This document shows positions 37,746-56,300 of a stretch of DNA of 64,000 nt, piece after piece. Position numbers and translations under genes: made by a program. This stretch comes from an uncultured Phycisphaerales bacterium (GTDB lineage: Bacteria; Planctomycetota; Phycisphaerae; Tepidisphaerales; Tepidisphaeraceae). Each line of letters opens with the position of its first letter. The stretch's first letter is position 1. The notes below the pieces were generated by a model. That model did not search any database, was not told the origin of the DNA, and saw only the letters and a program-made list of their open reading frames with translations. The stretch is taken from positions 4,256,001 to 4,320,000 of the forward strand of contig CAVWLP010000002.1 in the NCBI GenBank assembly GCA_963755915.1, read 5' to 3'.

Positions 37746-39581
37746 ATGAACACGGACACAACCAGTCGCAGAGAGTTTATTAAGCTGGGTGTGGCTGTTG
37801 CCGCGGCGCCGTTACTGATCTCGGTCGGAGGGACGCGTGCCGCCGATTTACCGCTGACGCCGCCGGCGACGGCAGGGGCTGAGACAAAAATAAGATCTTT
37901 TGACTACAAAGGCGTGAAGCTCCTTGATGGAGCGATGAAAGACCGATACCAGGCCACGCGCGATTATTACTTTAACGTCCCGACCGATGACATTCTCAAA
38001 GGTTTCCGCCGCCGCGCGGGCCTCGAGGCCCCTGGAACGGACATGGGCGGCTGGGCTCAGAAAAACTCCGAGATTGTCTTCGGCCAGTGGCTCAGCGGCA
38101 TGTCTCGCATCTATGCCGGGACCCATGATGTGCCCATCCGCGATAAGGCGCTTGAACTCCAGGCCGAGTTTGCAAAGACACTCACAAATTTCAATTGCCG
38201 CCATTACGGATATGACAAGTTCGTCTGTGGTTTTGTGGATGTGGCGACGTTCGCCGACGATCAAACAGGCTTGCCGACGCTTGAAACGCTCACCCATTGG
38301 GCCGAAAAACATCTTGGCCGCAAGCGATTGCCCGCGACCGACGCTGACTCACAAGGCGGATTTTTCAACGGCGAGCTTGAATGGTATACGCTGCCGGAAA
38401 ACCTCTATCGCGCCTGGCAGTTCACCGGTAATTCACTCTACCGCGATTTCGCGGAGGTGTGGCATTATCCAGCCTATTGGAAAATGTTTGATGGCAGCGC
38501 CGACCCGGCCCCGAACGGGTTCCATGCCTACAGCCATTGTAATGCACTCAGCAGCCTGGCGATGACCTATGCCGTCACCGGCAATGCCTCGCTGCTGAAG
38601 TGCCTGGTCAATGCGCACGACTATTTCCAGAACACCCAGTGTTATGTCACCGGCGGATACGGCCCGGGTGAAAAGTTGATGGCGCCGGATGGGGCGCTGG
38701 GAGAATCGATCGTCATCGAGCCGAACAGGAAATATCTCGGCGGCAACATCGGCCGCTCGTTCGAGACGCCCTGCGGCACGTGGGCCATTTTCAAGGCCTG
38801 CGATTATCTGCTGCGGTTTACCGGCGAGGCGCGGTTTGGCGACTGGATGGAGCGCGGGCTTTACAACGGAATCGGTGCGGCGCTTCCAATGACCGGCCGC
38901 GGAACGACTTTCTACTACGCCGATTATCGTATGAAAGGTGCTGCCAAGAAGTATTTCGGCGCCGCCTGGCCCTGTTGTTCGGGGACATTCATTCAAAACG
39001 TCTCCAACTACCTCAACATGATCTATTACCAGGATGATCAGGGAGTCCTGGTAAATCTATATGCGCCTTCCGAGGTCACGTGGCAGCATGGGGGTACTGC
39101 GGTAACGCTCACCCAACGGACGGAATATCCCGCATCGGAACAGAGCGAGCTGAAGATCAGTGTTGACGCTCCGGTGGAATTCAGCGTGAGGCTTCGTGTG
39201 CCCTCCTGGGCTGAGGGATTGCGACTGAGCGTGAACGACGAGGCGATCAATGTTGCAACCAGGCCCGGCGAATGGGCGACCGTTCGGCGAAGGTGGGCTT
39301 CGGGTGATCGGCTGGCGGTGGTAATCCCTCTAAGGCCACGCCTGGTGCCGATCGACAAGCAGCACCCGGATCGTGTTGCCGTAGCGTGCGGACCGGTGGC
39401 GCTCGTGCATGTCGGCCAGGCTCCGGCGATTGCCAGCCGGGCGGAGTTTGGCAAGTTTGCTCCGGCCGAGGGAACTGCTATCCAATTGGTTTCGGCAGAT
39501 CAAGCGGCCGGCCAATTCATCCCATTCTTTCACGCCGCCAGGGGACAACACTACCGGCTGTACGTCGATCTTCAGGCCTGA
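37746..39581 (+). CDS. Tat-exported GH127-like beta-L-arabinofuranosidase
   Basis: SRREFIK twin-arginine motif; HAYSH, ETPCGTW, ERGLYN, WPCCSGT, TEYP, LRVPSW. Confidence 0.85.
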   Translation: MNTDTTSRREFIKLGVAVAAAPLLISVGGTRAADLPLTPPATAGAETKIRSFDYKGVKLLDGAMKDRYQATRDYYFNVPTDDILKGFRRRAGLEAPGTDMGGWAQKNSEIVFGQWLSGMSRIYAGTHDVPIRDKALELQAEFAKTLTNFNCRHYGYDKFVCGFVDVATFADDQTGLPTLETLTHWAEKHLGRKRLPATDADSQGGFFNGELEWYTLPENLYRAWQFTGNSLYRDFAEVWHYPAYWKMFDGSADPAPNGFHAYSHCNALSSLAMTYAVTGNASLLKCLVNAHDYFQNTQCYVTGGYGPGEKLMAPDGALGESIVIEPNRKYLGGNIGRSFETPCGTWAIFKACDYLLRFTGEARFGDWMERGLYNGIGAALPMTGRGTTFYYADYRMKGAAKKYFGAAWPCCSGTFIQNVSNYLNMIYYQDDQGVLVNLYAPSEVTWQHGGTAVTLTQRTEYPASEQSELKISVDAPVEFSVRLRVPSWAEGLRLSVNDEAINVATRPGEWATVRRRWASGDRLAVVIPLRPRLVPIDKQHPDRVAVACGPVALVHVGQAPAIASRAEFGKFAPAEGTAIQLVSADQAAGQFIPFFHAARGQHYRLYVDLQA

Positions 39582-39629
39582 AGGATCGCAAAAATCGCGA
39601 AACTTTCACTCAGCCGCCGCGTCCAAACC

Positions 39630-40418
39630 ATGACGATGCCACCAACCCATCTCGCACGCAGCGCCGCTCCGCTCGATTATGCGCCTGCGCGGCGAAACCG
39701 CCGACGGATCTATCGTGTGATGGTTGCGTCGTTGCTCCTGGGATTGGCCCTCGTCGCCTGGAAATTTTCTCCCGCCTGGTGGCGGCGAGCGGAAATCCTC
39801 TACTGGCAGCACGAGTGCCTGCAATTCTCCTTGTCGCCGGACACCGTCGTCTACGAGGAAGATCCCACCGGGGCCGCCGCTTTGCTGGCCGGCAATCCCA
39901 ATTATCATCCCTATACCTTCCAGCGGCGCTCCAGTATGCAAGCGCCTCCAAGTCCGGCGACCGCCGCCGCGCTCGGCGTCTCGGACTGGGATAAACTGAC
40001 CAGCATCCTGCCCGGCTTCCATCCGTCGTTAATTAAACCGGCGGTCATTTTTCTGCACGAGCGAATTTCCCCTGCCGGTCATCGCCGCCTCGTGTGCGTC
40101 AGGTACGGCCCTCAGGGCGACGCATTCAGCGCGCAATTCATCCAAGCCCTAAACTGCGACACATTCACCGTGACTCCTGGCACATGGAGCCAGGCGCCCA
40201 TTTATACGCCGCTAGGATGGGCATATGACGTCGAAGTTGGCTGGCCGCGCAGACCACCCCTCGTGCGTATCTTCGCCGGCCAACCCGATCCAAACGATCC
40301 CGCCCATTTCACCATCCGCTACCGAATATGGGGCCAGGAAGATGTGCTGGATGGCCGATTGCTGGACAACGATCGAGTGACGTTAACATTCAGAAAAGAG
40401 CCTCAAGAGAATAATTAA
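39630..40418 (+). CDS. Hypothetical membrane-anchored protein
   Basis: PLDYAP + basic stretch + one transmembrane helix; fills the space after the GH127-like gene. Confidence 0.65.
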   Translation: MTMPPTHLARSAAPLDYAPARRNRRRIYRVMVASLLLGLALVAWKFSPAWWRRAEILYWQHECLQFSLSPDTVVYEEDPTGAAALLAGNPNYHPYTFQRRSSMQAPPSPATAAALGVSDWDKLTSILPGFHPSLIKPAVIFLHERISPAGHRRLVCVRYGPQGDAFSAQFIQALNCDTFTVTPGTWSQAPIYTPLGWAYDVEVGWPRRPPLVRIFAGQPDPNDPAHFTIRYRIWGQEDVLDGRLLDNDRVTLTFRKEPQENN

Positions 40419-40502
40419 TCGTTTGTTCCGCGGAGACGGCATGCGGTTCAGTGTCAGATTGAGTTTGAGGAGCTGGCGTAGGGGATTCCGCCGGTGAGGA
40501 CA

Positions 40503-40556
40503 CGGCTCGACCGTCTTCGACCCTGAGGCTCAGACCCGAAGGGAGCTCGCCGAGGT
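40503..40556. repeat. Short palindromic REP-like element, apparently nested
   Basis: ggctcgacc-[gtcttcgaccctgaggctcagacccgaagg]-gagctcgccgagg; cttcg/cgaag and ctga/tcag stems. Confidence 0.4.
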
Positions 40557-40596
40557 CCGGCGGCACTTAGGAGAGCGATGCCGGGCGGGAGAATTT

Positions 40597-41214
40597 TCAT
40601 TCGCAGACAGGCAAGACCTCATGCCCGCACTCCGGACAGCGCTGGGGCGTTGCCCGCAGATCGTAGCCGCAGTTTGCGCAATAACCGGGATGCGCACGCC
40701 GATAGCGACGCCGCATCGAACCCCGAACAAATCTGGCGGGGAGGATCAGGCCGATGAGGATGATCGCCCAATCGGGGACGGAAACGGTTTGATAGGTCGC
40801 CTGGAGTACGTCATTGCTGGGAAGCCGTATCCAGGCTTTTCGAGCACTTTGAAGGAAGGAAGTTTTCATCGAGCCGAAGCCGCACCAGCACCACCCCTCG
40901 CCGGCAAGCAGGGTTTCCTCGTGACTGATGATGCTCGCCGCCTGGCCCGGGAAAAGATGGTGAAACTCATGCTGGATCGTCGTTGTGGCCGCCGAGGGAT
41001 CCAGCCGCAGATGCCGCGATGAATCCCGCGAAAGCACGATCCGTCCGCCGACGGATTCGATCATGCTGCTGGTGTCCACGAATTCAGACGTCTGGAAAAG
41101 CGTCACCCGATCCCACCAGCGGACACTTCGCCCCCAGAGCACAACCATCCCGATGCTCACCAGCAAAGAAAAGCTAGCGACAATCGAAAAAATAACTTTG
41201 GAAAAGCGTTGCAA
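40597..41214 (-). CDS. Membrane protein with C-terminal zinc ribbon (Phycisphaerae-type)
   Basis: Two transmembrane helices; CANCGYDLRATPQRCPECG. Confidence 0.8.
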   Translation of the reverse strand: MQRFSKVIFSIVASFSLLVSIGMVVLWGRSVRWWDRVTLFQTSEFVDTSSMIESVGGRIVLSRDSSRHLRLDPSAATTTIQHEFHHLFPGQAASIISHEETLLAGEGWCWCGFGSMKTSFLQSARKAWIRLPSNDVLQATYQTVSVPDWAIILIGLILPARFVRGSMRRRYRRAHPGYCANCGYDLRATPQRCPECGHEVLPVCE

Positions 41215-41242
41215 GGGAAGCTTATTCTACCAGTAGGAGAGG

Positions 41243-42252
41243 CTACGGATTTACCGAAAGGGGCACCGGCGGCGCGAAAGTCCCGGAATACGCGCTCCAT
41301 CGCAAGGTCCACAGCTTTTCCAGCGGCACCGTTTCCACATGTTCATCCATGAAAACCATGTTCACGGCATTTCCATGCCGGGCGATGCAGAATCGTCCCA
41401 TCTGCCCCCAGTTGGGCCCGCGGGAGCCGATGCAGGTGTCGTAGCGGGCGCCTTCGCTCAGGTTCGTCGGCGGGTAATCCAAAATTGCGACGCCATTGAT
41501 TCGGCAATTCAGCGGCCAGGCTTCGTGCCAGTTGCAATCGCCCAGAACGGGAATCCGCGCGGATCGGCCGGCGGATGATGGCGGGTATCGAGGAAGAGCG
41601 ATCGCGGATCGACGCCGGAATAGTATTGAATGCCGCTGTAATAGATCGGGACAGGAACTGAGCCGACGGTTCCGGAGGCGTCGAGGTCGTAGAGCCAGCC
41701 GTTCATTCCATAGCTGCCGGCGATGAAATTGATGTCAGGATAAGTGCCGGGGCCCCAGGGCATATTGGCGCTGCCCCAGGCGCCGCCTTCGGCGCTGCTG
41801 CCACCGGTTGGCTCGCCCGGACCAATATTCGACGCGGGCGCTTCGGGGCAGAACCAGATCGACGGCAGGTTGGGCACGTAGGAAATCTGCTCGGCATAGG
41901 AGGGGTTTCGCGGGAGCCGATTGGGGGAATAGGGATTGGTGAATCCATTGACATACTGGCCCAGGGCGATCATCCAGAAGCCGCTGGGGTTGCCGGAGTC
42001 TCCCATCGCCATGCGGCGATGATCAGTGATAAAAGACTGGTAGGCCCACCCAAGCTGATGAAGGTTGGAGATGCAGCGGGTGGTGTTGGCGCTTCGACGA
42101 GCCTGACTGACGGTGGGGAGGAGGACGAAACCGAGGACTACCGCGACGAAGAGGATGACGACCAGTTCGACGAGAGTGAACGCTGGCGTGAAAGCGGGGG
42201 TTAAGCCGCGTGGGCGGTCAAGCCGGCATTTCCTCTGGCGCCAGAATTTCAT
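41243..42252 (-). CDS. DUF1559-type prepilin protein, degenerate paralogue of 47732-48796; frameshift at ~41558
   Basis: [67 protein letters not shown]. Confidence 0.8.
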
Positions 42253-42388
42253 GGCGCTGCTCCGAGCTGGTTCGACCGGGGATCATTTGAGATCCGGGGG
42301 ATCACTTGGGATCCGAACGCTTTGACGTGCCAGATCGCAATATCCCGGTCGGAAAACCTGAATCCATACTAACCCTTAACGAGGAATT

Positions 42389-42414
42389 ACGTAAGAATTT
42401 TCTTGGATTGGACA
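42389..42414 (-). promoter_or_regulatory. Putative ECF-dependent promoter of the DUF1559 gene at 42252
   Basis: TGTCCAATC-N13-ACGT on the minus strand; one of four copies. Confidence 0.65.
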
Positions 42415-42464
42415 GGAAATCGGGAAAAAGTTGGGAATTAGAGGGATTTGTGGGGGCGGGGGAC

Positions 42465-42488
42465 GCCCCGCAAGCGGGGCCGCTAAAC
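42465..42488. repeat. Short REP-like hairpin
   Basis: gccccgc-aa-gcggggc followed by cgctaaac. Confidence 0.4.
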
Positions 42489-42545
42489 ATGGGGGAGGGG
42501 GTTCGGGGAGCTGAGGAATTTCCTTTTTGATTTCGCGCGATTTTG

Positions 42546-42571
42546 TGTCCAAATCATCTCCCATCCGCCGT
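42546..42571 (+). promoter_or_regulatory. Putative ECF-dependent promoter of the PEP-CTERM gene at 42653
   Basis: TGTCCAAAT-N13-CCGT. Confidence 0.7.
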
Positions 42572-42652
42572 TGGTATCGTGTGGGCGTTCGCGACATCCG
42601 GATGCCAGGATGCGTCGAACTTCCCCGGCAAAAACAATTCTTTGGAGGCGAT

Positions 42653-43495
42653 ATGATCAAATTGGAGGGAAAGCTGGGGGTGAAATGGGGGGGAAAGCTC
42701 GCTTTGGGGACTTCAGTGCTGGTAATTGTTGGATGGACAGGCGTTTCCCACGGCCAGGTGATTAGCTGGGAGGAGGACGTTTACGGCACCGTCCCATCCA
42801 ACGGCTACGCCGGCGTCGTCAGCGTCGATAACTGGACCGATTCCTATCCGGCCAACCAGACCACCAACCTGCCTGACAACACGGGCGCTGCCACCACGCT
42901 CGATTTGCAGGAAGTTTCGCCCCAAAGCCTCACTTGGGCGATTCAGTTTGCCCACCCCGGTCAGGACGCCGACGGGACCTACAACAAGGAAATGCTCAAC
43001 GGCTACCTGAATGGCGGGCCCGCCGAATGGAATCCCAGCCCGCCGAACAATGGGGTGGTGCTGACGAATATCCCCTACTCCGAGTATGACATCTACGTCT
43101 ACATCTCCTCCGACACGGCCGGCCGGACCGGATGGGTCACTGATGGCGGCGTCACCCAGGGCGGAGCCGCCAACGGCGACGCCACCATGAGCACCTTCAC
43201 TCCCGACGGCGCCACCACCTACGATTTCACCACCATCGGCCCCGCCGAAATCAGCACGCCTGACGCCACCTTCCTTCAAACTACTGACACCCTCGGGCTA
43301 TACCCCGCCGCCGACTACGCCGAGTTCACCAACCTGAGCGGGTCGAGCCAGACGATTACGGTTCAGATGCTCGTCAACGACGACTGGGCAGGCGTCGCCG
43401 GGTTCCAAGTCGTCGCCGTGCCGGAGCCAATGTCGCTTAGCTCATTGGCCGTGGCGGGTGCGCTTTTGAGCCTGCGGCGTCGGAAAGCTAATTGA
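42653..43495 (+). CDS. Small PEP-CTERM protein without dockerin-like module
   Basis: ggagg RBS; signal peptide; acidic beta-sandwich-like domain ending GVAGFQVV; VPEP...RRRK. Confidence 0.88.
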   Translation: MIKLEGKLGVKWGGKLALGTSVLVIVGWTGVSHGQVISWEEDVYGTVPSNGYAGVVSVDNWTDSYPANQTTNLPDNTGAATTLDLQEVSPQSLTWAIQFAHPGQDADGTYNKEMLNGYLNGGPAEWNPSPPNNGVVLTNIPYSEYDIYVYISSDTAGRTGWVTDGGVTQGGAANGDATMSTFTPDGATTYDFTTIGPAEISTPDATFLQTTDTLGLYPAADYAEFTNLSGSSQTITVQMLVNDDWAGVAGFQVVAVPEPMSLSSLAVAGALLSLRRRKAN

Positions 43496-43522
43496 GCTGA
43501 TCGCACAGAAATATGCCAAGAC

Positions 43523-43555
43523 AAGCCCCGGAAAACTACCGGGGCTTTTTGTTTT
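43523..43555 (+). terminator. Rho-independent terminator
   Basis: aagccccgg-aaaacta-ccggggctt followed by tttgtttt. Confidence 0.85.
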
Positions 43556-43621
43556 AGTGGGTCAATTTGAGAGCGATGACGCGTTGGGTAAATTCCCACG
43601 GCAGCGCCGTGGGCGTTCAAT

Positions 43622-46272
43622 TCAAAGAGCAAATTGAGTCACTCGTTTTTTTGTCCTGCGCCTTCGCCAAGCCATTCCCGCCAGCATCGCTGCCCCAATT
43701 CCCATCGTCCCCGGCTCGGGCACTTCGTCCAATGCCAGCGTCCATTGCGACGCAATCGCCGGCGACAATTGCGCCGCCTGCGCTGACGTCAGCGGCTGGT
43801 CAAAATTCTCCGCCACCGCGACTAAATCCGCAAAATCCACCAAGCCGGTCGGATCATTCGTAAAATTCCCCTCCGCCCAGTCGTTGCCGGTGGTTTGCCA
43901 ATGCTGGGCGACGATCAGAAGATCGTTGAATCCGACCACTCCCTGCAAATCGGCATCGCCGAGAAGGGCATACTTGACGACAATCTGATCTGGGCCCGCC
44001 GGCGTTCCCGTGTCTGTGCTCCCATCTGCATATCCGATTCCGAAATGCGTTGGGTCGGCCATCGCGGCGCTGCTGGTGATCCCGGTGCCGTTCCAAGTGC
44101 CGCCGTTAAATCCGGAGATCAGCGCTTCCCGGATCGAAGCGATTGGAGATTGCCCGGCGGCATAGTTAATGACGAGCGTATTGGCCCCCACATCCAGCGT
44201 GCCGCCGGTAAGCGCCAGATCGTTCACGCTGAGTACCGTTTGCGACCCGGTTGCCAGCGACGCCTTCGCATTCGCCGGCAATTGCAGCGTATTGACGTTT
44301 GCCGAACTGGCGAAGGCTACGCTGGCGTTTGACCCGATATTGATGATCGACTGGTAAACCACATTCCCGCCGCCCGTCTGGACGATCGACATTCCCGAAT
44401 CGATCGTAATCGGATTGGCGATGATCAACTGTGCCCCCGTTGAAACATTGATCGTGGTATTGCTGGCGATGGTCATCGGCAGATTGATCTCCTGTGTCCC
44501 CGCCTGCACGATGATTTGCGCCGAGCCGGTGCTGGCCTGAAGCGTAAGCGAGCCCGCCCCGGTGATCTGATAGGTATTGGCATTATTGAAATTTAAGGTT
44601 CCGAGCGTCACCGGCGTGTCCGTATAAACCGTCGTTGACTGGGAGACTGCCCCAAAGAAATCCGCCTCGGCGCCTGCGGCGTTGGGGGCCGCGCCGCGGA
44701 GCCAGTTGTTTTCTTCGTTCCAATCGCCCGAGGCGTTTAAACCCCACTGCGGCGCCGGTGGCGGACCGGCGATGACAACCTCATACATCCCGGATGCGTC
44801 CGAATTCAGCGTCTGCGTGAATGTTCCCTCCCAGTTTCCAAGATCTGCGCCCGTCCATAGGTTTTTTACGTCATAGGCCGTTGTTGCGGAAAGACCGAGG
44901 CTGGCAAAGCTTACGCTCACCGACCCTGATGACGAGCCGGTGTTAAAGAGCGCCACATAATCGCTCGCGGAATTCGGGACCGCGGCTTCCCAGACGACTT
45001 GATTGTTGGCATTGGAAACCTGGTGATTCCCCAGGCTCGACTGATCTACCGCGAGTATCGCGCTGTTCGTTAGCAGTGAGGTCGTGAACGAATCGCTGGC
45101 CAGGCTGGGTAGATCTCCCCCCATAATCAGCGGCGAGCGGATGATCGACCAGAGGGTCATCACCGTCTGCTGCTGGTCCTGAGTCAGATCGCTGGAGCGC
45201 GCCGTCCCTACCGGTGGATTCAGAAAACTCCCCAGAGGCAGCATGTCGGCATCCGGCCAGTTGCCTGAGCCGGTGTTCGGATTGATCCCCTCATATTGCT
45301 CCCAGCTCGCCGCGGCCGCAAAGGCTGAGCTCACGTCGCTCCAGTTGTCCCACATGTCGTTCAGCATGCGCCACATGTTGGCGTCCTGTGTGAGTTGGCT
45401 TGCCTCGCTGAGCGGAGCCGGGCCGGGCGAGAGGCTGAGAACCATTGGCCGGCCTGACTGCGCAATGGCTTCCGCAACCCCGGCGACGTCCGCCGAGTGG
45501 TAGGTGGTGCTGAGCATGTCGTCGACTTTTACATAATCCACGCCCCAACTTGCGTACTGGTCGAAGATGGCGTCGTAATAATCCTGCGCACCCTGCGTGA
45601 GCTGTCCATTCGACCCGACATCAAGCCCCTGCATCTGGTTGAGCCACGGCGCTCCGGTGCCATTGCCTGCGGCAATTTCATCGGCCGTTACCGTGCCATT
45701 TGTTCCGGCGACCGGATCGTTGGCAAAGACCGCCTGCTGCGGAATTCCGCGCATGACGTGAATCCCAAAATCCAGGCCCAGGCTATGGCAATAGGCCGCC
45801 AGGTAGGCCATCCCATTGGTGTAATCCACGCCGTCCACGGTCCCGCCCGGAAACCGAGTCGGATCAGGCTCCAGCTCCCCGTTGGAATTCATCTCCAGCG
45901 GCGGGCTTGCCGTCGTCACGCCATGCTTCGTGGTAAACGCCTGCTGAAGATATCCCGATCCCGTTGTCCCCGACCCAAACGCCCCCTGCTGCGCCTGGGT
46001 CCAGGACCAGTCGTAATCGACGATGATGTATTTGTATCCGTACTGCGCGAGGTTCGCCGCCATGTAGTTGGCTTCCGACACCACTTCCGACTGCGTCACA
46101 AACGCGCCGTAAGAATCGTAACTGTCCCAGCCCATCGGCGGCGTCAGCGCTACCTGCGCCGCGCACCCGTCCCAAAAACCAACGAGAAAACCGCCGCGGT
46201 TAATAAACGCTTGCGCGGACCTGGAGAACCCGCCCCGCCTTTACCAGAAAAAATTCGAGCATCCAAAAACAT
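43622..46272 (-). CDS. GH27 catalytic domain fused to stalk, divergent dockerin-like module and PEP-CTERM; frameshift at ~46160 at the end of the signal peptide
   Basis: LTPPMGWDSYD, FGIHVMRGIP, DYVKVDD, ANMWR, WPDADMLPLG; VPEP...RRRR. ATG 46272 gives MFLDAR...RKRLLTAAVFSLVFG. Confidence 0.85.
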
Positions 46273-46293
46273 AACGAGACACTCGCACTGCCA

Positions 46294-47706
46294 TTATTCG
46301 GCGGAAAGCCGGAAGAGCCCCGCCCCGTGAAACCGAATCCCCGGCGCAAACTCGCCGTGAAATTCCCCCAGATCGCTATGCTTCCAAAGATCCCGCACGC
46401 GCACGCCGCCGCTGAATCCCAGATCGCTGAACTGCACCGGAACCTTCGCATCCGGCGGATCAACTGCCGCCACGACCGGATCCTGCGCGTTGAAGACCGC
46501 CAGATATTTATCCCGCGACCCCGGCACATCCGCCACCCAGGCGATCAGATCATCATGCCGAAACACCTGCCTCCCCGGCGTATCCCTCTGATCCACCGCA
46601 ATGACTTCATCATTGGTAATCAGCGATAGCGTAAACGCATCATTCTGCGGCAAGTTCCCCCCAAACATCAGCGGCGACCGGCAGATCGCCCACAGCGTCA
46701 TCACCGTATACTGCTCATCCGGCGTAAACTCCGTATGCCCCTGCCGGGGGGAACGAATCGCCCCCAGCGGGAGCATATCCGCATCCGGATAATGCCCCAC
46801 GCCGCAATACGGCACCCAATTCGCGCAGCGCTGAAATTGCTCCTTCAGCGGCGGCCAACGATCCCAGAAATCATCCGAAATCCGCCAGAGATTCGCATGC
46901 GTCGCAATATGCGCCCCGTCCGACAGCGGCGTCGCCCCTGGGGAGGTGCTGAAAACCATTGGCCGTCCGGAATGATCGATGGCGTTGCGAATCGCCTCGA
47001 TCTCCCCCGTGTGGTAGGGCCGGCTCAAATCGTCCACCTTCACAAAATCCACGCCCCACTGCGCATACTGCGCAAACAGCGAATCGTAATACGCCTGCGC
47101 CCCCGGCTTGGACGTATCGACTCCGTACATATCCGGATTCCACGGGCAAGTGCTGTTGATATTCGCGATATCCCGCGCACGAAGCGAGGTCCCCATCACC
47201 GGCGTATTCAGCTCCACCGCCTGCCGCGGAATCCCCCGCAACATGTGAATCCCAAACTTCAGCCCCAGCGAATGAACATAATCCGCCAGACCCTTGAACC
47301 CATTCCCGTTCCCCGCCGATGAAAACCGATTAGCCGCCGGCAGCAGCCTTCCATATCCGTCCATCTGCAGCCGCGCATTGGGGCGATAATCCCACCCATT
47401 CGCCAGCGGCTCATACCACTGAATGTCCACCACAATGTATTGCCATCCATGCTGCTTCAGATTCTGAGCCATGTAATCCGCATTGGCCCGCACCTGCGGC
47501 TCAGTCACCGCCGCCCCAAAACAGTCCCAGCTATTCCACCCCATCGGCGGTGTGGTTGCCCATTGATAAAACTGCGGTGAATCAGTCGCCATTTGATCGC
47601 CTGCCATAGCAGAATCAGTCAGAGCCTGGCAACAAATCAGCCCTACAGCCAGCGCCGCAAGGCATCGGCGAAAGTTTACCGGAAAACCCTCAAACGACTT
47701 AGGCAT
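46294..47706 (-). CDS. Secreted GH27, resembling beta-L-arabinopyranosidases of the Geobacillus Abp type
   Basis: TPPMGWNSWDCFG, IVVDIQWYEP, MDGYGRLLPA.NRF, CPWNPDMYG, GVDFVKVDD, PDADMLPLG. Confidence 0.88.
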   Translation of the reverse strand: MPKSFEGFPVNFRRCLAALAVGLICCQALTDSAMAGDQMATDSPQFYQWATTPPMGWNSWDCFGAAVTEPQVRANADYMAQNLKQHGWQYIVVDIQWYEPLANGWDYRPNARLQMDGYGRLLPAANRFSSAGNGNGFKGLADYVHSLGLKFGIHMLRGIPRQAVELNTPVMGTSLRARDIANINSTCPWNPDMYGVDTSKPGAQAYYDSLFAQYAQWGVDFVKVDDLSRPYHTGEIEAIRNAIDHSGRPMVFSTSPGATPLSDGAHIATHANLWRISDDFWDRWPPLKEQFQRCANWVPYCGVGHYPDADMLPLGAIRSPRQGHTEFTPDEQYTVMTLWAICRSPLMFGGNLPQNDAFTLSLITNDEVIAVDQRDTPGRQVFRHDDLIAWVADVPGSRDKYLAVFNAQDPVVAAVDPPDAKVPVQFSDLGFSGGVRVRDLWKHSDLGEFHGEFAPGIRFHGAGLFRLSAE

Positions 47707-47731
47707 GATTTAAATCATTCCAGCCTATTGG

Positions 47732-48796
47732 CTACTGCTTTGGAAGCGGTGCAGGCGGGCTAATCCCAACCGCCGACATCGGGCTCCATTGCAGCCCCCA
47801 AAGGTCCGGCAGATTCACCGTCTCTGCATGACCATCGAAGAACACCACATTGATCGCACGGCCGTGGCGCGCAAAACAGAATCTCGTCATCATTGAAAAG
47901 TTTGCCGACACGGAGGCGTTGTTCTTAAAGGAAACAGGCGTTTCCGAGCCATCCAACACGCTGGGCGGATAATCAGTACAAGGTTGCAGTTGGAAACTTG
48001 GATTCGTACCGAAGTTGCACGGCCACCCCTCGTGCCAAGTGGAATCCGTGAAGACAGGAACACGTGACGCGTTCATCACCCGCTTGGGGTTGTGAAAAAA
48101 GTTGAACCATGTGGTAAGCGTCTTCGCCGTGCTCCCGTTATATGGCCCCTTATATTGCAGACCACTCCAATAGATCGGCGCGGGATAACCGCCGACAATC
48201 GGCGCGTGCACCGCATCATAAAGCCATCCGTTCATTCCATAGCTGCTGGCCATGTACACGACATCGTCAAACGTGCCGGGCCCCCAAGGAACATTCTCCA
48301 TGCCGAAGTATCCGCCCTGCGGATTGACTCCATATTGGGTAATTGCAAAAGCAGGCGCCGGGGTAATATTGCCGTACGGGGCTTCCGGGCAAAACCAAAC
48401 CTGCGGCAGTCTCGGCAAAAATCCAACCTGATCCGACCATTTCGCTGCGCTGAAGACCGGAAGCCCGCTGCTCGGGTCGTACGGATTAACGAATCCCTGC
48501 AGATATTTCCCAATCCTTACCATCCAATAGACAGGCTCAGTTGAATTCGGCAATGTTGGGTTGTAGCCGTCATTAATGGTCGGCTCCTCGTATCCATTCT
48601 CCTGCAGATACATCTGGTGAGCCTGCCCCAATTGCCGCAGATTCGACAGGCACTCCAGCGTATTGGCCTGCTTCCGCGCCTTTTGAAGCGCGGGGAGCAG
48701 GATGCCGATCAAAATCGCTATAATCCCAATCACCACAAGCAGTTCCACGAGCGTAAACCCCCGCCCGTGTGTCAACCTATCTCTTTTCGCTCTCAC
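47732..48796 (-). CDS. DUF1559-type prepilin protein
   Basis: gaggag RBS + GTG 48796 (ATG 48856 is an alternative); [36 protein letters not shown]. Confidence 0.9.
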
Positions 48797-48902
48797 GCCG
48801 ACGTCTCCTCGTTGCCGAATGGAATGAACGCTGCTCCGTCGCTGAACGCTGGGCATTGTTGGCTCTCCAGAGGCGGCGCGATTTGGCCTCCGCCGAATGG
48901 CA

Positions 48903-48928
48903 ACGGTTCCCGGCTGGGAAATTGGACA
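48903..48928 (-). promoter_or_regulatory. Putative ECF-dependent promoter of the DUF1559-GH27-GH27 operon
   Basis: TGTCCAATT-N13-CCGT on the minus strand. Confidence 0.72.
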
Positions 48929-48999
48929 TGCTTTTCGCGGATTTCCTTGCTCCCAGCGGACTTGAGCGGGCTCGTCTTCCTTCAATTTCTATGAAAATC

Positions 49000-49025
49000 T
49001 GTCCAATTCCGATTCCCCCTGCCGT
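49000..49025 (+). promoter_or_regulatory. Putative autoregulatory ECF promoter
   Basis: TGTCCAATT-N13-CCGT, about 50 nt before the sigma start. Confidence 0.72.
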
Positions 49026-49076
49026 AATCAGCTGCCGCCGGACCCTTTGCTATGCCCGCGCGGCAAGGGAACCGTG

Positions 49077-49628
49077 ATGGATCAGTCAATGGACCCCCAA
49101 GCGAATGACCCGCAGGCAAGGGCGGACGAATTCATTCAGCTATTCACGGCCAATGAATCCAGTTTGCGGGCTTATGTCCTCTCCCTGGTCCCCCGCTGGA
49201 CGGATGCCGAGGAAATTGTCCAGCAGTGCAGCGTCGTTCTATGGAAAAAATTCTCCCAATTCCGGACTGGCACCAATTTCTTCGCCTGGGCCTGCCAGGT
49301 CGCCCGGCTGGAAGTAAAGGACTACCGCCGCCGGCAAAAACGCGACCGAGTCGTCTTCAGCGACGAGTTCATCGAAGCGATCGCCGACGACGCCCTGGCA
49401 AGCCAGTCCGAACTGCTGGTTCGCCTCGGCGCCCTTCAGCATTGCGTGGAGAAGCTCTCGCGGGATCAGCGCGAGCTGCTTCGCCTCCGATACAACGACA
49501 GCGGGTCGATCGACTCCGTCGCTGCGGCCGTCAATCGTTCCGTCGACGCCGTCTACAAGAGCCTCAGCCGCATTCGCCAGGCCCTGCACGATTGCATCAA
49601 CCGGACCCTGGCAGTTGGAGATATTTGA
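49077..49628 (+). CDS. ECF sigma-70 factor (Rhodopirellula/Verrucomicrobium-type)
   Basis: LRAYVLSLV...DAEEIVQ...LWKKF..F..GTNFFAWA; YKSLSRIRQALHDCI. Confidence 0.92.
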   Translation: MDQSMDPQANDPQARADEFIQLFTANESSLRAYVLSLVPRWTDAEEIVQQCSVVLWKKFSQFRTGTNFFAWACQVARLEVKDYRRRQKRDRVVFSDEFIEAIADDALASQSELLVRLGALQHCVEKLSRDQRELLRLRYNDSGSIDSVAAAVNRSVDAVYKSLSRIRQALHDCINRTLAVGDI

Positions 49629-49641
49629 GCAAAGGTCATCG

Positions 49642-51351
49642 GTGAGCAACGAGAATCCCCAACAATCTTCATCGCCAACTCCTCCCCCCGACGAAATCGC
49701 CGCCGCGACGCAGTTGATTCTCGCGCTCTGCGACGAGCCGCCACCCCCGACCAGATCGCCGAGTTGGAGCGCCTCATCCGCCAAAACCCTGCCGTCCGCA
49801 AGCTCTACTTCCGGATGATGCAGCTTCACGCCGGCCTGCATTTCTACGGCTCCGCCCTGGGCATCAAGGACCCCGGCGACGATTCCGGATCCGATCCCGG
49901 ATTTGGCTCGCGCGCCCGAGATTTCCAGAAGCAGGTACTCTCTTCAATTCGTTCCACAATGGGAGTCTCAGGGACCCCCTCCGGCGCAACCTGGCGACGA
50001 CCAACCTTCAAATTTCGGCAGGCCGGTTAACTTCGTCTGGCGAATAGGCCTGGCGCTGGCGGCAATCCTCCTCCTTGCCCTGGCCCTCTCCAAGCCCTGG
50101 TCGTGGCGCAATGCCCAGCAGGGTGCCGGCGCAGGCAATTCGAGCCAGCCCGGCCTTGCCGATCTTAACTCCGCCAGCGTCACCGCCGTCGCCGGCTCCG
50201 GCTCCATCTTTCAATCCGGACAGAAACTTCCCACCGGCCAACTCTTTGAGCTTGAGCACCAGGACATCCAGTTCGAGCTCGCCGGTGGTGGACGCGTTAC
50301 CATCGCCGCCCCCTCCCAGTTCAAGCTCGATTCCGGATCGGAGCTGTTCCTCACCCGTGGCAACGTCGAATCGCGCATCCCCGGCGGCGGCTTCGTCGTT
50401 CGCACCCCCACCGCTGTCATCACCGACCTCGGCACCGAATTCGGCGTCTCCGTCGCCAGCTCCGGCGCGACTCACGTTGACGTATTCGAAGGGAAAGTCG
50501 CGGTAACCCCCGCGAACCCATCGCCAAATTCCCCCGCCGGCCTCCTTCTCTCCGCCGGCCAGGCCGCCTCCGTATCCGCCACAACCATCGCCATGGATCC
50601 CGCCGGCGCAATCGCCCAACGCTTCGTCTCACAACTTAACAGCTCCCTCGATTCCCTCGACCTCGCCGACCTCGTCTCCGGCGGCGACGGCTCCACCCAC
50701 CGCCGCGGCAACGCTATCGACGCCCTCACCGGCCAAACGGGCGTCCTCAAAGTCGTCGGCGCTCGTGACGGCGACTACAAATACCATCGCGTCGCCACCC
50801 TCCCCGTCATCGACGGCGCCTTCGTCCCCGATGGACAGCGCGGCCCCAGTCAGATCGACTCCCTCGGCGACCGCTTCCAGTTCCCGAGCACCTCCAATCT
50901 CAGCTTTAACCGCATCTGGACCGGTGGCCCAATTCCCTGGACCAGCGAGCGCGGAATCTCCAGCGTCCTGGGCGACATCGACTACTCCACCCCCGAACAC
51001 TCGATCCTCTGCATTCACAGCAACAACGCCCTCACTCTCGACCTTGCCGCCATTGGCCGCCTCTACCCCGACCGCAAAATCTCCGCATTCCAATGCACCA
51101 TCGGCAACAGCTACGTCAACGGAAGCTCCGACGAAACCGGCGTAAATCCCCGCGCCGATGTATTTGTCATCGTCGACGGCTCCGCGCGATTTGAAAAACA
51201 GCGTTTCATCAACCAGGACGGACCCTTTAAGGTCGATGTCTCCCTCAACCAGGGGGACCGATTCCTCACCCTTGCCACCACCGACGGCGGCGACACAATC
51301 AACGACGACTGGATCCTCTGGGTTGATACGACGCTTCGAATCTCGCCATAG
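49642..51351 (+). CDS. FecR-type anti-sigma factor with C-terminal NPCBM-like domain; frameshifts at ~49738 and ~49912
   Basis: LERLIRQNPAVRKLY anti-sigma helix; one transmembrane helix; FVVRTPTAVITDLGTEFGV, VDVFEGKV; IHSN..LTLDL, RFLTLATTDGGD..NDDW. Confidence 0.8.
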
Positions 51352-51450
51352 CGGCCGCGTGTGCCGTCAGATGAGACGTCTGGGCGAATTGTTTAGTTGA
51401 ATTGTCACAGCCGCCCTTTTGCAGGCGGCCATATCTTCAGGAGGTGTATT

Positions 51451-53265
51451 ATGGGAGCGGGACGAACGAGGTCCATCATCATGCTGGCTTGCGCAGGCGT
51501 GGCCGGAATTACCCTCAAGGCCCACGCGCAAAACACAGTCGAAAATCCAAACTTCCTGACCCCCAGCACGGGCGGCTACATCGACGACAGCAACGCCGAA
51601 ATCAACACTCCCGGCACGACAAATTTCTGGGACTGGGGCTACTATTTCGGCCAGACCGGCACCGCCGACAAAGACGCCGGCGTCCAGGCCAATACCAACG
51701 CCCAGCTTACCAATCCCCCCAGCGGTTCCAGCCAGAGCGGCTGGGTGAACGGCGCGGATGACTATCTCTATCAGGACGTGGGCGCCCTCGCCGCCAACAC
51801 CACCTACGACCTCACCGTCTCCGTCGCCGCCCCCGGCGGAACCGCCTACGGCGGCGTCGGCGCCGGCAACAACCAGCCCACCGATCTCATCGCCCTGCTC
51901 AACGGCGACAACGTCCTCACCACCACCAACAACGTCGCCGCCAACGGAACGGTCCTCAATTCTCTGAACGTCACCCCCAACAACGGCACCTGGACAGACT
52001 ATTCCGTCAGCTACACCACCGGCTCCTCCGTGAGCGGCGACCTCACCATCCAGCTCGAGGAAACCGCCTCCGGCGCTCACGAGCAGGGCAACTTCGGCGA
52101 CGTTCGCCTGACCGTCAACGGCGTCACCCCGCCCAGCCAATGGGGCGTCAACTCCTCCGGCGACTGGAACGTCGCCTCCAACTGGACCAACAGTACCGTC
52201 CCCAACGCCGCCGGCGCTGAGGCCGACTTCTTCAGCGCCATCACTTCCAACCACACCGTCTTCACCGACGCCGCCGACACGGTCGGAACGATCAATTTCA
52301 ACAACGCCAACATGTACGAAATCACCGGCACCGGCTCCCTCACCCTGCAAGCCGCCACCGGCAACGCCCAGGTCATCGTTCAGCAGGGGTCGCAGGAAAT
52401 CAATCTCCCCACCACCGTGGCGAGCAACACCGTCTTCAACGTCTCCAGCGGCGCGACCCTCACCATCGGCAACCCGCTGACGATCGATTCCGGCGTGACC
52501 GTCACCCAAACCGGCAGCGGCAGCGTCGTCTACAACTCGATCATCAACGTCGGCAGCAGCGCCTCGATCGCCTTTGCCGATTCCACCCACGCCCACGAGC
52601 TTTCGGTTGCGTCCGGCGGCACAGCCTCCATCACCAGCCCCAGTGGCGGCGTCGTTCTCGAAGTAGACAGCCTTGCCAACTCCGGCACCGTCAACGTCGC
52701 CAACAACGAGCTGCTGATCAACTACGGGGCCAGCACCAGCCCACTTTCCACCGTCATCTCCGAGCTGAAGACCGGCTACAACAGCGGCGCCTGGAACGGA
52801 CCCGGCATCGACTCCACCTCCGCCCACGCTCACGCAGGATACGGACTCGGTTTTGCAGACGCTGCAGACCAGGGCAACCCCGCCCATCTCTCCTCCGGCA
52901 CGCTCGAAGTGAAGTACACCCTCCTCGGCGATGCTAATCTCGACGGCACCGTCAACGGCACCGACTTCTCGATCCTGGCTGCGAATTTCGGACTCGGCGC
53001 CACCAACTGGGACCAGGGAAATTTCCTATTCACGTCTTCCGTCAACGGCTCCGATTTCAGCGCCCTGGCCTCAAACTTCGGGCTCGGCGCCAGTGGCGCC
53101 GCCGATGCCGGCGTTTCGACCGCCGACATTGCCGCTCTTGACGCTTTTGCCGCGGCGAACGACTTGGCGGTGCCGGCGGTTAACTCTGTGCCGGAACCGG
53201 CATCGCTCGGCTTGCTGGCGCTGGGTACGGTCGGCATTTTGTCGCGTCGCCGACGAACGCAATAA
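51451..53265 (+). CDS. PEP-CTERM protein (CBM-like head, stalk, dockerin-like module)
   Basis: aggagg RBS; signal peptide ...KAHAQ; VENPNF head; YTLLGDANLDG; VPEPASLGLL...RRRR. Confidence 0.92.
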   Translation: MGAGRTRSIIMLACAGVAGITLKAHAQNTVENPNFLTPSTGGYIDDSNAEINTPGTTNFWDWGYYFGQTGTADKDAGVQANTNAQLTNPPSGSSQSGWVNGADDYLYQDVGALAANTTYDLTVSVAAPGGTAYGGVGAGNNQPTDLIALLNGDNVLTTTNNVAANGTVLNSLNVTPNNGTWTDYSVSYTTGSSVSGDLTIQLEETASGAHEQGNFGDVRLTVNGVTPPSQWGVNSSGDWNVASNWTNSTVPNAAGAEADFFSAITSNHTVFTDAADTVGTINFNNANMYEITGTGSLTLQAATGNAQVIVQQGSQEINLPTTVASNTVFNVSSGATLTIGNPLTIDSGVTVTQTGSGSVVYNSIINVGSSASIAFADSTHAHELSVASGGTASITSPSGGVVLEVDSLANSGTVNVANNELLINYGASTSPLSTVISELKTGYNSGAWNGPGIDSTSAHAHAGYGLGFADAADQGNPAHLSSGTLEVKYTLLGDANLDGTVNGTDFSILAANFGLGATNWDQGNFLFTSSVNGSDFSALASNFGLGASGAADAGVSTADIAALDAFAAANDLAVPAVNSVPEPASLGLLALGTVGILSRRRRTQ

Positions 53266-53363
53266 AACACCTGGATTTCGCAGTGTGACATGCCCCGGAA
53301 CGGCTTTTATTCAGACTGAAAAAAAAGCGCTCCGATTCGCACGTGGCATGATACAATGGCACC

Positions 53364-56300
53364 ATGCGCGAGGCAGGCGGAGGAATAGCTGATCTCACCA
53401 CGCGCCGCAGCGCAATCATCCAGGCCGCCGGCGCGGCCCTCCTCAGTCTCTACGGCCTCAATTGGCCCGCCTTCGCGGTAGACGCGGTTGATTTCAGCGC
53501 TTCGACCCCGGGCACGACCAAATCCATCAACCAATGGGGCGTTGAGGTCGTCGACGGCAATTCCCTTGGTCTCGCCCAGAGCATCGCCACGATGGGATCG
53601 AACCTCACCATCGCGGCGACTTACTTCGACCTCGACAACGCGCTGAATTCCAACGGTACCCTCTCCAGCCCGCAGCAGCAGGACATCAACAATCAGATCA
53701 ATGAGATCCTCGCCGGCGACACCACCGGCCAAAAGTTGATCATCTCGATGGGCCCCAGCGTCAGCGGCAACAATTCCGAATACACGACCAACAACAGCGC
53801 CAACGTCGTCGAGTGGGCCCAGGCGATGATCGCGTCGAAGGAATATTGGGTCTCCCACGGATACACCGTGGGCTGGGCCGGGCCGTACACGGAGCCGGAC
53901 TATTGGGGAGACGAGGGATCGGCCGAGCAGGGCGCGCAGATCATGGAGGCCCTTCAAGCCAACCCCGCGTGGGGCACCGGCACGGAACTGCTGGGCGCCT
54001 CGACGCTGGACGCCGACAACGCGGAATCGTGGTATCAGCCGCTTGAAGGGATCGCCAACGCGGGATCGACGCACATGCTGGGCGGTTCCCTTACCTCGTA
54101 CATCAACTTCATTCAAGACGTCCAATCCAGTGGCGGGCAATTTGCCGCGCCGGAAATGCACAGCCTCGGCGAAGCGATCGTCAGCGCAAACTACGGCGCG
54201 ATTCAGGGCGTGTGGTGGGGTCCGGCGCTGCTGGCGCGGCGCGTTCGTGCAGGCGTCGAACGGCAAACAGATTGGGTATACGCAGGATCTCACTGACCAG
54301 ACCGCCGCCGCCGTCTATCGCGCCGAGCGGACAGACCTACGCGTTTGCCGGGGGGCTGGAGAGGTTTGGATCTCCGACGTCTTACGAATTCACCAGCGAT
54401 CGTAACGCGTATTTTAACGGAATCGGGCCGCTGAAGACCTACACGCTTCAGGCGAATTACGATAACAACCCCGCCAACACGCCCGGCAGCAGTAACGATT
54501 TCTCAAACTTCGGCGCCTACTTCGACCAGGGCGCTTATGCCCCCATCGATTACGGCGCCGCCAGTGTCCCCGCGCTCGACGGCTACCGCTGGACCATCCA
54601 GAACGTCCAGACGGGCCAGGTGCTGACCGTCGCCGGCAACAGCACCAGCGACGGCGCGGCTATCGATTCAACCCTAAACACCGGCTCGCTCAGCCAGCTC
54701 TGGAACATCACCCGCACCCAGGACGGGTACATCGAGCTTTTCAACGCCAACAGCGACCTTACCGTCGGAGTGACCAATGCCTCGACCAGCGCCGGCGCTA
54801 CCGCCGTCCAGTATGGAACCGCCGGCACGCAGGACGAGCAGTGGTATTTGAATCCCGCCGGCAACGGCAACTTTTACATTCAGGACGGAAACAGCAATCT
54901 CTATCTCACCTCCAGTTCCTCCAACTGCACCCAGCAGAATCTCAGCAACGTGACCCCCGGCTTGCAGGAATGGAAATTCGTCCTGGCCAATCCCACCTCG
55001 CCCGCGATTGCCAACTATAAATTCGCGGGGAACGGCAACGACAGCACGGGAACTTACAACGCCACCGTCAGCGGCACCGCCACCTACGGCACCGGGCCGA
55101 CGGCGGGGAGCCAGGCGCTGAACTTTGACGGCTCGACGACCTACGTCACCCTCCCCAGCAGCCTGACCCCCACCGCATCCAGCAGTACTGGCCTCACCTC
55201 CGCGGTCACCATCGACACCTGGGTTAAGTGGAACGGCGGCAGTCAATGGCAGCGAATTTTCGACTTCGGAACCGGCACCAACGACTACATGTTCCTGACG
55301 CCCGACTCCTCCGCCGGCACCATGCGCTTTGCTATCACCACCGGCGGGAACGGGCAGGAAGAAGACTTTGACACCACCGAGCTGGCCACCGGCACATGGG
55401 TGAACCTGGCCGTCACGCTCGGCGGACATTCGGTCATCATGTATGTCAACGGCCGGCCGGCCACTGCCGGGCAGATTCTCTTCAATCCATCGAGTGTCTT
55501 CTCCGGGGCGTCTACGATTAATGATTACATCGGCAAGAGCCAGTTCTCCGGCGACCCACTCTTCTCCGGAAGCATGAGCGGCTTCCAAATCTGGAACTAC
55601 GCCCTCACCCAATCCCAGGTCGACGACCTGATCGACAACAACCTCACCTGGGTCGGCGGCCAGAACGGCAATTCCTGGGATGCGAGCACAACGTCAAATT
55701 TCAAGCTGATGAACACCGGTGCCTCCTCTGTCTTCACCCAGAACGACCGCGTCACCTTCGACGGCACCGGCACCTCCACCGTCTCCATCACCGGTACCGT
55801 CTCCCCCTTCTCCATCAACGTCACCGCCAGCTCCAACATCAGCTTCACTGGGGCCGGCTCTATCACCGGCTCGCAAACGCCGCTCACCATGTCCGGCACT
55901 GGCACACTCACCATCGCCAACACCGGCGGCAATTCTTATACGGGCGACACCTCCATCAACTCCGGCGTGATCTCCATCAGCGCTGACAACGACCTCGGCA
56001 CTGATGCCGCCAATCTCGACCTTGATGGGGGCACGCTCCAAACCACCAGCACGAGTGCCATGTCGTTCGGCCATTCGATCCTCATCGCTGTTGGCGGCGG
56101 GGCTCTGAACATCATCGGCAACGGCTCCGCCAACACCACCGATGCCGACCGCATCATATTGAATTCCTCCAACCTCCTCGTCGGCTCGGGCTCGCTTACC
56201 ATCACCGGCGACGGAACATTGGCCGGCGCAGCCCAACACCACCAGTTCTGGCGCGGGCGCACTGGTGCTCAATGCCTCCAATACTTTCGCCGGCAACATC

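Follow-up and report, generated by a model that had tools for sequence, protein, structure and literature searches.

What unites the pilin-like, PEP-CTERM and predicted glycoside hydrolase family 27 (GH27) genes that surround a regulatory gene pair in an uncultured planctomycete is the question raised by a locus on contig CAVWLP010000002.1 (assembly GCA_963755915.1, positions 4,256,001–4,320,000). This 64,000-nt stretch is called the window below, and positions given without a contig are those of the window. Four intergenic sequences of the form TGTCCAAWY-N13-MCGT lie in front of these genes and in front of a gene for an extracytoplasmic function (ECF) sigma factor at 49068–49628. On the basis of sequence comparison, the motif is very probably the promoter recognised by this sigma factor, which would thereby control an autoregulated regulon.

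The source assembly, designated G000 (6.63 Mb in three contigs, marker completeness 81%), was searched on both strands, and chance expectations were taken from 100 dinucleotide shuffles. The motif pattern was formulated after inspection of the data, and independent tests were therefore sought in other genomes.

Motif copies in the window and in the genome

The pattern matched the window exactly four times against 0.02 matches expected, and none of the 100 shuffles reached four; together with direct reading, this bears out the initial annotation, in which four copies at identical spacing had been noted. The copy at 49000–49025 (+), which reads TGTCCAATT-N13-GCCGT, is predicted to be the promoter through which the sigma operon is autoregulated, and the copy at 48903–48928 (−), divergent from it, is predicted to serve the pilA2-GH27-(GH27-PEP) gene string. 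The two others are the predicted promoters of PEP1 (42546–42571, +) and of pilA1 (42389–42414, −), the latter being the weakest copy, with ACGT in place of CCGT. All four were found to be intergenic and oriented toward the neighbouring gene, as had been claimed, with the CGT located 42–136 nt before the likely start codon. This distance is 42 nt for the sigma gene (ATG at 49068), 46 or 106 nt for pilA2 (ATG at 48856 or GTG at 48796, respectively), 81 nt for PEP1 (ATG at 42653) and 136 nt for pilA1 (ATG at 42252). No sigma-70-like promoter match was detected in either intergenic region.

The heptamer TGTCCAA taken alone was not enriched in the window (8 occurrences vs 5.8 expected, 23 of the 100 shuffles reaching 8), and a CGT followed 16 nt downstream only in the four intergenic copies. 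When one mismatch was allowed, only two sites were added in the window, at 16484 and 26787, and the resulting six against 3.2 expected correspond to background. Near-matches at this level thus indicate no additional promoter before the PEP622 gene, which follows the sigma and fecR genes, or before the ricin/LamG gene further downstream.

The genome-wide scan that had been suggested as a check gave a divided answer. Over the whole of G000, TGTCCAA-N16-CGT occurs seven times, so the total copy number is at background, but four of the seven copies lie inside 6.6 kb of the locus and are consistently oriented. The signal consequently consists in extreme clustering and not in a genome-wide excess.

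The sigma factor and its FecR-type partner

The sigma gene (49068–49628, +) encodes an ECF sigma factor of the Rhodopirellula/Verrucomicrobium family TIGR02989, on which its score of 167.3 bits exceeds the cut-off of 124.55, and the product also matches Sigma70_r2, Sigma70_r4_2 and Sigma70_ECF. Directly downstream, at 49675–51351 (+), lies the gene of an anti-sigma factor that is FecR-like and has a C-terminal NPCBM domain (Pfam FecR and NPCBM), so the ECF/FecR gene pair originally proposed is confirmed by the Pfam and TIGR02989 matches. The anti-sigma has one strong transmembrane segment, and its NPCBM portion is placed outside the membrane. In the domain scans of the locus, which covered 13 open reading frames (ORFs) between 37746 and 56326 at E ≤ 0.001, the ectodomain matched NPCBM with 33.2 bits while Laminin_G_3 gave no match, and NPCBM is likewise present in the orthologous anti-sigma factors of two other genomes (G142 and G017). 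No solved-structure relative of FecR was found by sequence search.

In the congener G002, the fecR ORF begins at the sigma stop codon and encodes an intact ortholog of 566 aa, relative to which the N-terminal region of the G000 gene (49675–49903) contains two frame changes. This break, like the one that splits pilA1 in G000, is plausibly an assembly indel, real disruption being the alternative.

G000 has 32 ECF-like matches (E ≤ 1e-10), the locus sigma being the sole one over the TIGR02989 cut-off, and the locus protein is the one FecR match in the whole genome. The single above-cut-off sigma and the single FecR fit one sigma factor with one small private regulon. A rule by which each sigma–FecR pair would have a private motif was inapplicable within G000 for the same reason, the genome having a single FecR protein. 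A second ECF-like sigma gene is located 12.6 kb downstream of the first (61640–62662, +). Its ORF of 340 aa reaches 81 bits on TIGR02989, which is below the cut-off, may include a fused C-terminal extension, and has an upstream region without the motif.

Conservation of the boxes within the genus

All four copies are present in each of the congeners G001 (sigma 98% identical) and G002 (77%). The PEP1 site is kept in both with a differing spacer, the pilA1 site of G002 retains TGTCCAA-N16-CGT, and the pilA2 site is kept in both as well as in the metagenomic loci L124 and L125. The block containing the sigma and pilA2 genes is inverted in G002 relative to G000, and each motif still stands before its own gene. 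The inversion corresponds to 43622–53265 of G000 when compared with locus L022 (G002:C63), and the pilA1 + PEP1 pair is found on opposite sides of the block in the two genomes.

The pattern of divergence bears on the possibility that the copies are inert relics of gene duplications that carried upstream DNA along and have no present function. The pilA1 and pilA2 genes are indeed paralogs (42–45% identity), as are the N-terminal domain of PEP622 and a distal PEP-CTERM gene. Relics should decay evenly, whereas a comparison of G000 with G002 shows the box positions to be identical in 40 of 40 cases, the spacers in 27 of 64 and the remaining intergenic columns in 209 of 548, the flanks thus being near random, although the alignments were possibly anchored on the boxes. 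Moreover, the sigma and PEP1 genes carry the motif without being paralogous to the pilin-like genes, which makes it extremely improbable that the copies are mere remnants.

Five further congeners have no match to the sigma factor at E ≤ 1e-20 (genomes 88–93% complete). They contain 3–7 scattered copies of the motif, as compared with 3–7 for the reversed control, and none of these are paired. Clustered copies therefore occur in three of the three congeners with the sigma gene and in none of the five without it.

The motif before sigma relatives beyond the genus

In the family survey, 13 matches to the sigma factor were obtained at E ≤ 1e-45 in 12 of 141 genomes, and the exact motif was found upstream of five of the 13, namely those of G000, G001, G002, G142 (sigma 62% identical) and G141 (60%). 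In G083 (60%), the sigma gene is preceded by TGTCAAA at unchanged spacing and the divergent pilin-like gene by TGTCAGA-N16-CGT. An exact copy stands in this genome between the homologs of GH27-PEP and PEP622, the former being located within the sigma–fecR gene string, so the PEP622 homolog has a motif of its own. The G142 locus (L034, G142:C1:1026500-1046400) encodes a sigma–FecR-NPCBM ortholog that keeps the autoregulatory motif. The neighbours of the G142 sigma gene are a polysaccharide lyase family 4 (PL4) rhamnogalacturonan lyase and an aminotransferase, with no GH27 or pilin-like genes, and this difference from G000 implies that the content of the regulon varies between genera.

Sigma orthologs of 59–86% identity from five further lineages carry the motif 28–53 nt before their start. 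The wider survey comprised 80 loci of sigma relatives from species-representative genomes, among which the exact motif was found upstream only of relatives at least 60% identical, plus L054. This locus contains a sigma–fecR pair of another class (sigma 43% identical), with TGTCCAATT-N13-GACGT about 40 nt before the start. The neighbours of the L054 sigma are EF-P and fecR only, and no pilin neighbour was found there. Five of the 80 loci (L083, L095, L099, L106 and L118, with sigmas 39–43% identical) represent another clade of the TIGR02989 family and have AAACGG-N16/17-CGT upstream instead, which suggests, as far as these sequences can tell, that −35 boxes in the family differ between clades while the CGT of the −10 is shared.

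When metagenomes were searched for the two motifs in divergent arrangement, eight stretches were obtained, three of which contain sigma and pilin pairs. Both motifs and the divergent sigma/pilin pair are present in the loci L124 (86% sigma identity) and L125 (64%), and L130 contains a sigma/pilin pair like that of G002. The other matches were rejected as divergent promoters: L126/L128 and L127 are unrelated coding DNA of low GC content, and the L129/L131 match arose by chance in a long near-perfect inverted repeat (hairpin) of 72% GC.

The distribution of the motif over these lineages speaks to a further explanation, in which the copies would be promoters of another ECF sigma, such as that at 61640–62662 or any of some 30 further ECF-like genes, and the adjacent sigma would be merely a target. 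ECF cascades are known, and the number of ECF-like matches in G000, together with the second ECF gene within 12.6 kb, supplies candidates for such a regulator. Against this, the motif stands 28–53 nt before orthologs of the locus sigma in eight lineages, L054 included, clustered copies are confined to the sigma-bearing congeners, and the region upstream of the second ECF gene has no such motif, so control by another ECF sigma appears very improbable.

The consensus of 19 sites comprises an A/T-rich tract, TGTCCAATT, N and then g.gCCGT. The A/T-rich tract immediately preceding TGTCCAA is conserved and could be part of an operator, and the divergent copies form wide inverted pairs 71–131 bp apart. 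Both features would suit a site for an activator or repressor that is distinct from the sigma factor and co-inherited with the locus, and binding of the motif by the sigma factor is itself a prediction from sequence. A pair of short boxes kept 16 nt apart by a spacer of free sequence, always on the coding strand and 28–136 nt before the start, nevertheless has the geometry of a promoter and not that of a dimer operator. In addition, there is no regulator besides the sigma factor and FecR among the 13 ORFs scanned, and the motif accompanies the sigma gene also in L054, where EF-P and fecR are the sole neighbours. A separate regulator of this kind is accordingly regarded as quite improbable.

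Candidate regulon members elsewhere in the genome

A weight matrix was trained on seven sites, all from genomes other than G000, and was scanned over G000; because the training set includes G002 sites, which are orthologs of G000 sites, the test is not fully independent. The four best-ranking matches were the sites of the sigma gene (26.7 bits) and of PEP1 (23.6 bits), a distal copy at C2:3780430 and the pilA2 site (21.1 bits). The distal copy is located 92–158 nt before a PEP-CTERM gene (G000:C2:3779508-3780338). This gene encodes a paralog of the N-terminal domain of PEP622, and its product shares 70% identity with that domain of the G002 PEP622. The regulon is thus predicted to have at least one member outside the window. 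About 1 kb from this gene, a 462-aa ORF at C2:3781356-3782744 (+) resembles, as judged from its translation only, a group II intron reverse transcriptase/maturase.

Matches of lower rank are placed within ORFs or belong to a dispersed repeat. The genome copy at C2:583982 was discarded as a promoter, being located inside an ORF, while that at C2:3748085 (15.2 bits) is found between GH16-like and LacI-like genes, identified by their translations alone, at a distance of 405 nt from the latter. Also rejected was a 26-nt stretch beginning TGTCCGATTCC, which scored 18.8 bits, ends in CCGA and is present in six identical copies (C2:149411, 276777, 1386878, 1813030 and 3857948; C3:1157574); it probably belongs to a dispersed repeat or insertion sequence.

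Predicted regulation of the locus

The proposal that the four copies are promoters of the adjacent sigma factor, its own promoter among them, is supported by the comparative tests, that is, by the conservation of the boxes, their persistence through the inversion, the presence of the motif before sigma orthologs, the background level in congeners without the sigma gene and the ranking by the weight matrix. Several observations weigh against this assignment. The comparative tests are partly linked by shared ancestry, the sites of G000, G001 and G002 in particular not being independent, and the possible anchoring of the alignments mentioned above affects the contrast between boxes, spacers and flanks. 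The genome count of the 16-nt spacing (7) is not above that of the other spacings from 8 to 25 (3–16 each), the enrichment being purely local, and the pilA1 copy, with its ACGT, did not reach 14 bits when scored with the weight matrix. Among the 13 matches to the sigma in the family, the seven of at most 52% identity are without the motif, and the PL4 lyase gene divergent from the G142 sigma gene has no copy either. TGTCCAA is unlike the −35 box of GGAAC/AAC type that many ECF groups have. If the breaks in fecR and pilA1 are real, signalling would be altered in the G000 strain. Finally, the FecR-type groups ECF46 and ECF240 are described without conserved promoter motifs, at least in the parts of PMC7826278 drawn on here, where ECF46 is also presented as possibly lacking autoregulation and FecI-like groups as not autoregulated.

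Computation established the motif, where it stands, how it is conserved and that it co-occurs with the sigma gene, and from this we infer that the sigma factor binds the motif. TGTCCAAWT would serve as the −35 box, and (C)CGT, located 16 nt downstream of TGTCCAA, would form the −10 core. The single-pass FecR-type anti-sigma would keep the sigma factor at the membrane, and its outer part ends in the NPCBM carbohydrate-binding module, to which a glycan may bind. Binding would then release the sigma factor, presumably in the way known from FecR systems. This glycan-sensing account of the release seems somewhat more probable than not, and the inducing glycan probably contains alpha-galactoside-type linkages because GH27 enzymes are in the predicted regulon. 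Once freed, the sigma factor would transcribe its own operon, sigma-fecR-PEP622, resulting in positive feedback, as well as the divergent pilA2-GH27-(GH27-PEP) string, and it would also transcribe pilA1, PEP1 and the distal PEP-CTERM paralog (C2:3779508-3780338) as separate units. The expected outcome is the induction of capture proteins together with GH27 enzymes.

Relation to known systems

Classical autoregulated ECF promoters, such as those of SigW and RpoE, combine a short −35 box and a CGT-containing −10 box across a spacer of about 16–17 nt, and they govern a small nearby regulon. The promoters predicted here are similar in their bipartite layout, spacer and CGT −10 and in that one copy stands before the sigma operon, whereas the −35 box TGTCCAAWT is specific to the clade of the locus.

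The sigma groups with which the locus can best be compared are described by Casas-Pastor et al. (2021; PMC7826278), and the following likenesses refer to the portions of that source used here. ECF46 occurs in Planctomycetes and Verrucomicrobia, has a FecR-like single-pass anti-sigma encoded downstream with a Laminin_G_3 ectodomain, is accompanied by glycan-degrading neighbours and has been proposed to serve periplasmic carbohydrate sensing (PMC7826278). The locus resembles it, by description, in the phyla, in the one-transmembrane FecR-like anti-sigma at position +1, in the carbohydrate-binding ectodomain and in the neighbouring glycan enzymes, and differs in that the ectodomain is NPCBM and a conserved motif precedes the sigma gene in the locus clade. 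As in FecI/FecR/FecA and in ECF240, which is linked to polysaccharide utilization loci (PULs) and shares the theme of glycan scavenging, an ECF sigma and a FecR-domain anti-sigma would govern neighbouring uptake or degradation genes (PMC7826278). Unlike in those systems as outlined there, the 13 scanned ORFs (37746–56326) yielded neither a TonB-dependent transducer nor SusC/SusD; Plug and TonB_dep_Rec gave no match at E ≤ 0.001, and DUF4974 was likewise without a match in these scans. Further differences from the FecI and ECF240 descriptions are that the carbohydrate module is on the anti-sigma itself, that the sigma factor appears to be autoregulated and that its predicted targets are pilin-like, PEP-CTERM and GH27 genes. 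A sigma factor paired with a FecR-type anti-sigma can therefore, to judge from the conserved motif, be clearly autoregulated, unlike what the passages on ECF46 and ECF240 used here convey.

No prior description of the motif or the regulon was found in the literature searched by motif and component families. The analysis offers a concrete predicted promoter and a small, defined candidate regulon for a Rhodopirellula/Verrucomicrobium-family ECF sigma from an uncultured Tepidisphaeraceae-related lineage. It would place pilin-like proteins and a widespread PEP-CTERM family, the body of which has no Pfam domain, under one glycan-linked switch with two GH27 enzymes, and as evidence of function shared regulation outweighs the proximity of genes. 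Tentatively, the locus can be read as a planctomycetal counterpart of the Bacteroidetes PUL, in which the anti-sigma bearing a carbohydrate-binding module (CBM) senses the substrate and pilin-like (HX9DG/DUF1559-type) and PEP-CTERM proteins replace SusC/SusD. By analogy, these proteins might form or decorate glycan-binding fibres. Pili-like, dextran-binding fibres have been reported on planctomycete cells (PMC5394234), and this report motivates the comparison with PULs but does not test it. Should the comparison be correct, the very large pilin-like and PEP-CTERM paralog families found in Planctomycetota and Verrucomicrobiota would serve as glycan-specific modules for capture, each induced by its own substrate.

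Genes under the predicted promoters and their surroundings

The pilA2 gene (47732–48856, −) encodes a pilin-like protein with a prepilin cleavage/methylation motif (PF07963 N_methyl, 27.6 bits; TIGR02532, 23.8 bits), a hydrophobic helix at residues 10–41 and an N-terminal helix similar to those of pilins in PDB. The pilin-like gene pilA1 (41243–42252, −) is split in G000 into 41509–42252 and 41243–41482, with a gap at 41482–41509, while it is intact in G002, where it encodes 351 aa. Its product reads AFTLVELVV, and N_methyl, the only family assigned to the two pilin-like genes, is sub-threshold for pilA1 in G000. The C-terminal ORF of pilA1 reached 17.6 bits on TIGR04294 (H-X9-DG; cut-off 19) and has DE where the family has DG. 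The DUF1559 label that the initial annotation gave to both pilin-like genes was not upheld, since pilA2 (16.9 bits) and the pilA1 of G002 (9.9 bits) stay below the 23.3-bit gathering threshold of PF07596; a pilin-like gene beside the more distant sigma of G017 passes it with 25.9 bits.

The GH27 assignments were confirmed for both enzymes, each of which matches Melibiase_2 and Melibiase_C. The gene of the first predicted glycoside hydrolase (46294–47706, −) follows pilA2 after 25 nt. The second, GH27-PEP (43622–46135, −), is a predicted enzyme whose C-terminal half is related to PEP622. Its PEP-CTERM tag is borderline on the Pfam PEP-CTERM model (20.4 bits vs a threshold of 20.7), and its 5′ end is uncertain, the called start being without a signal peptide.

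PEP622 (51397–53265, +), a PEP-CTERM protein of 622 aa (TIGR02595, 26.1 bits vs a cut-off of 16), is encoded 45 nt after fecR, and its gene probably comes third in the sigma operon. PEP1 (42653–43495, +) encodes a protein of 280 aa, whose original PEP-CTERM label was justified by 19.9 bits on TIGR02595, and a terminator-like hairpin with a 9-bp stem, seven G-C pairs and a T-tract follows the gene at 43523–43547 (+). At least 150 homologs of PEP1 exist in Planctomycetota and Verrucomicrobiota, and the body of the protein has no Pfam domain. A sequence search of PDB with PEP1 gave nothing meaningful. The AlphaFold2 (AF2) model, with a predicted local distance difference test score (pLDDT) of 87, is a beta-jelly-roll, for which the best VIA-align match was the C-terminal domain of a Bacteroides beta-glucuronidase (Z 10.4, root-mean-square deviation 3.2, 139 aligned residues); many named CBM families followed in the lower ranks at Z 6–8, and Foldseek returned weak CBM-type matches only (E ≥ 4.8e-3). 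The modelled fold of PEP1 is thus CBM-like, and a shared fold does not establish function.

Two genes flank the locus, neither of which is preceded by the motif. That at 37746–39581 encodes a GH127-type beta-L-arabinofuranosidase, and that at 54212–56326 a protein of 704 aa with ricin-B, Laminin_G_3 and PATR domains.

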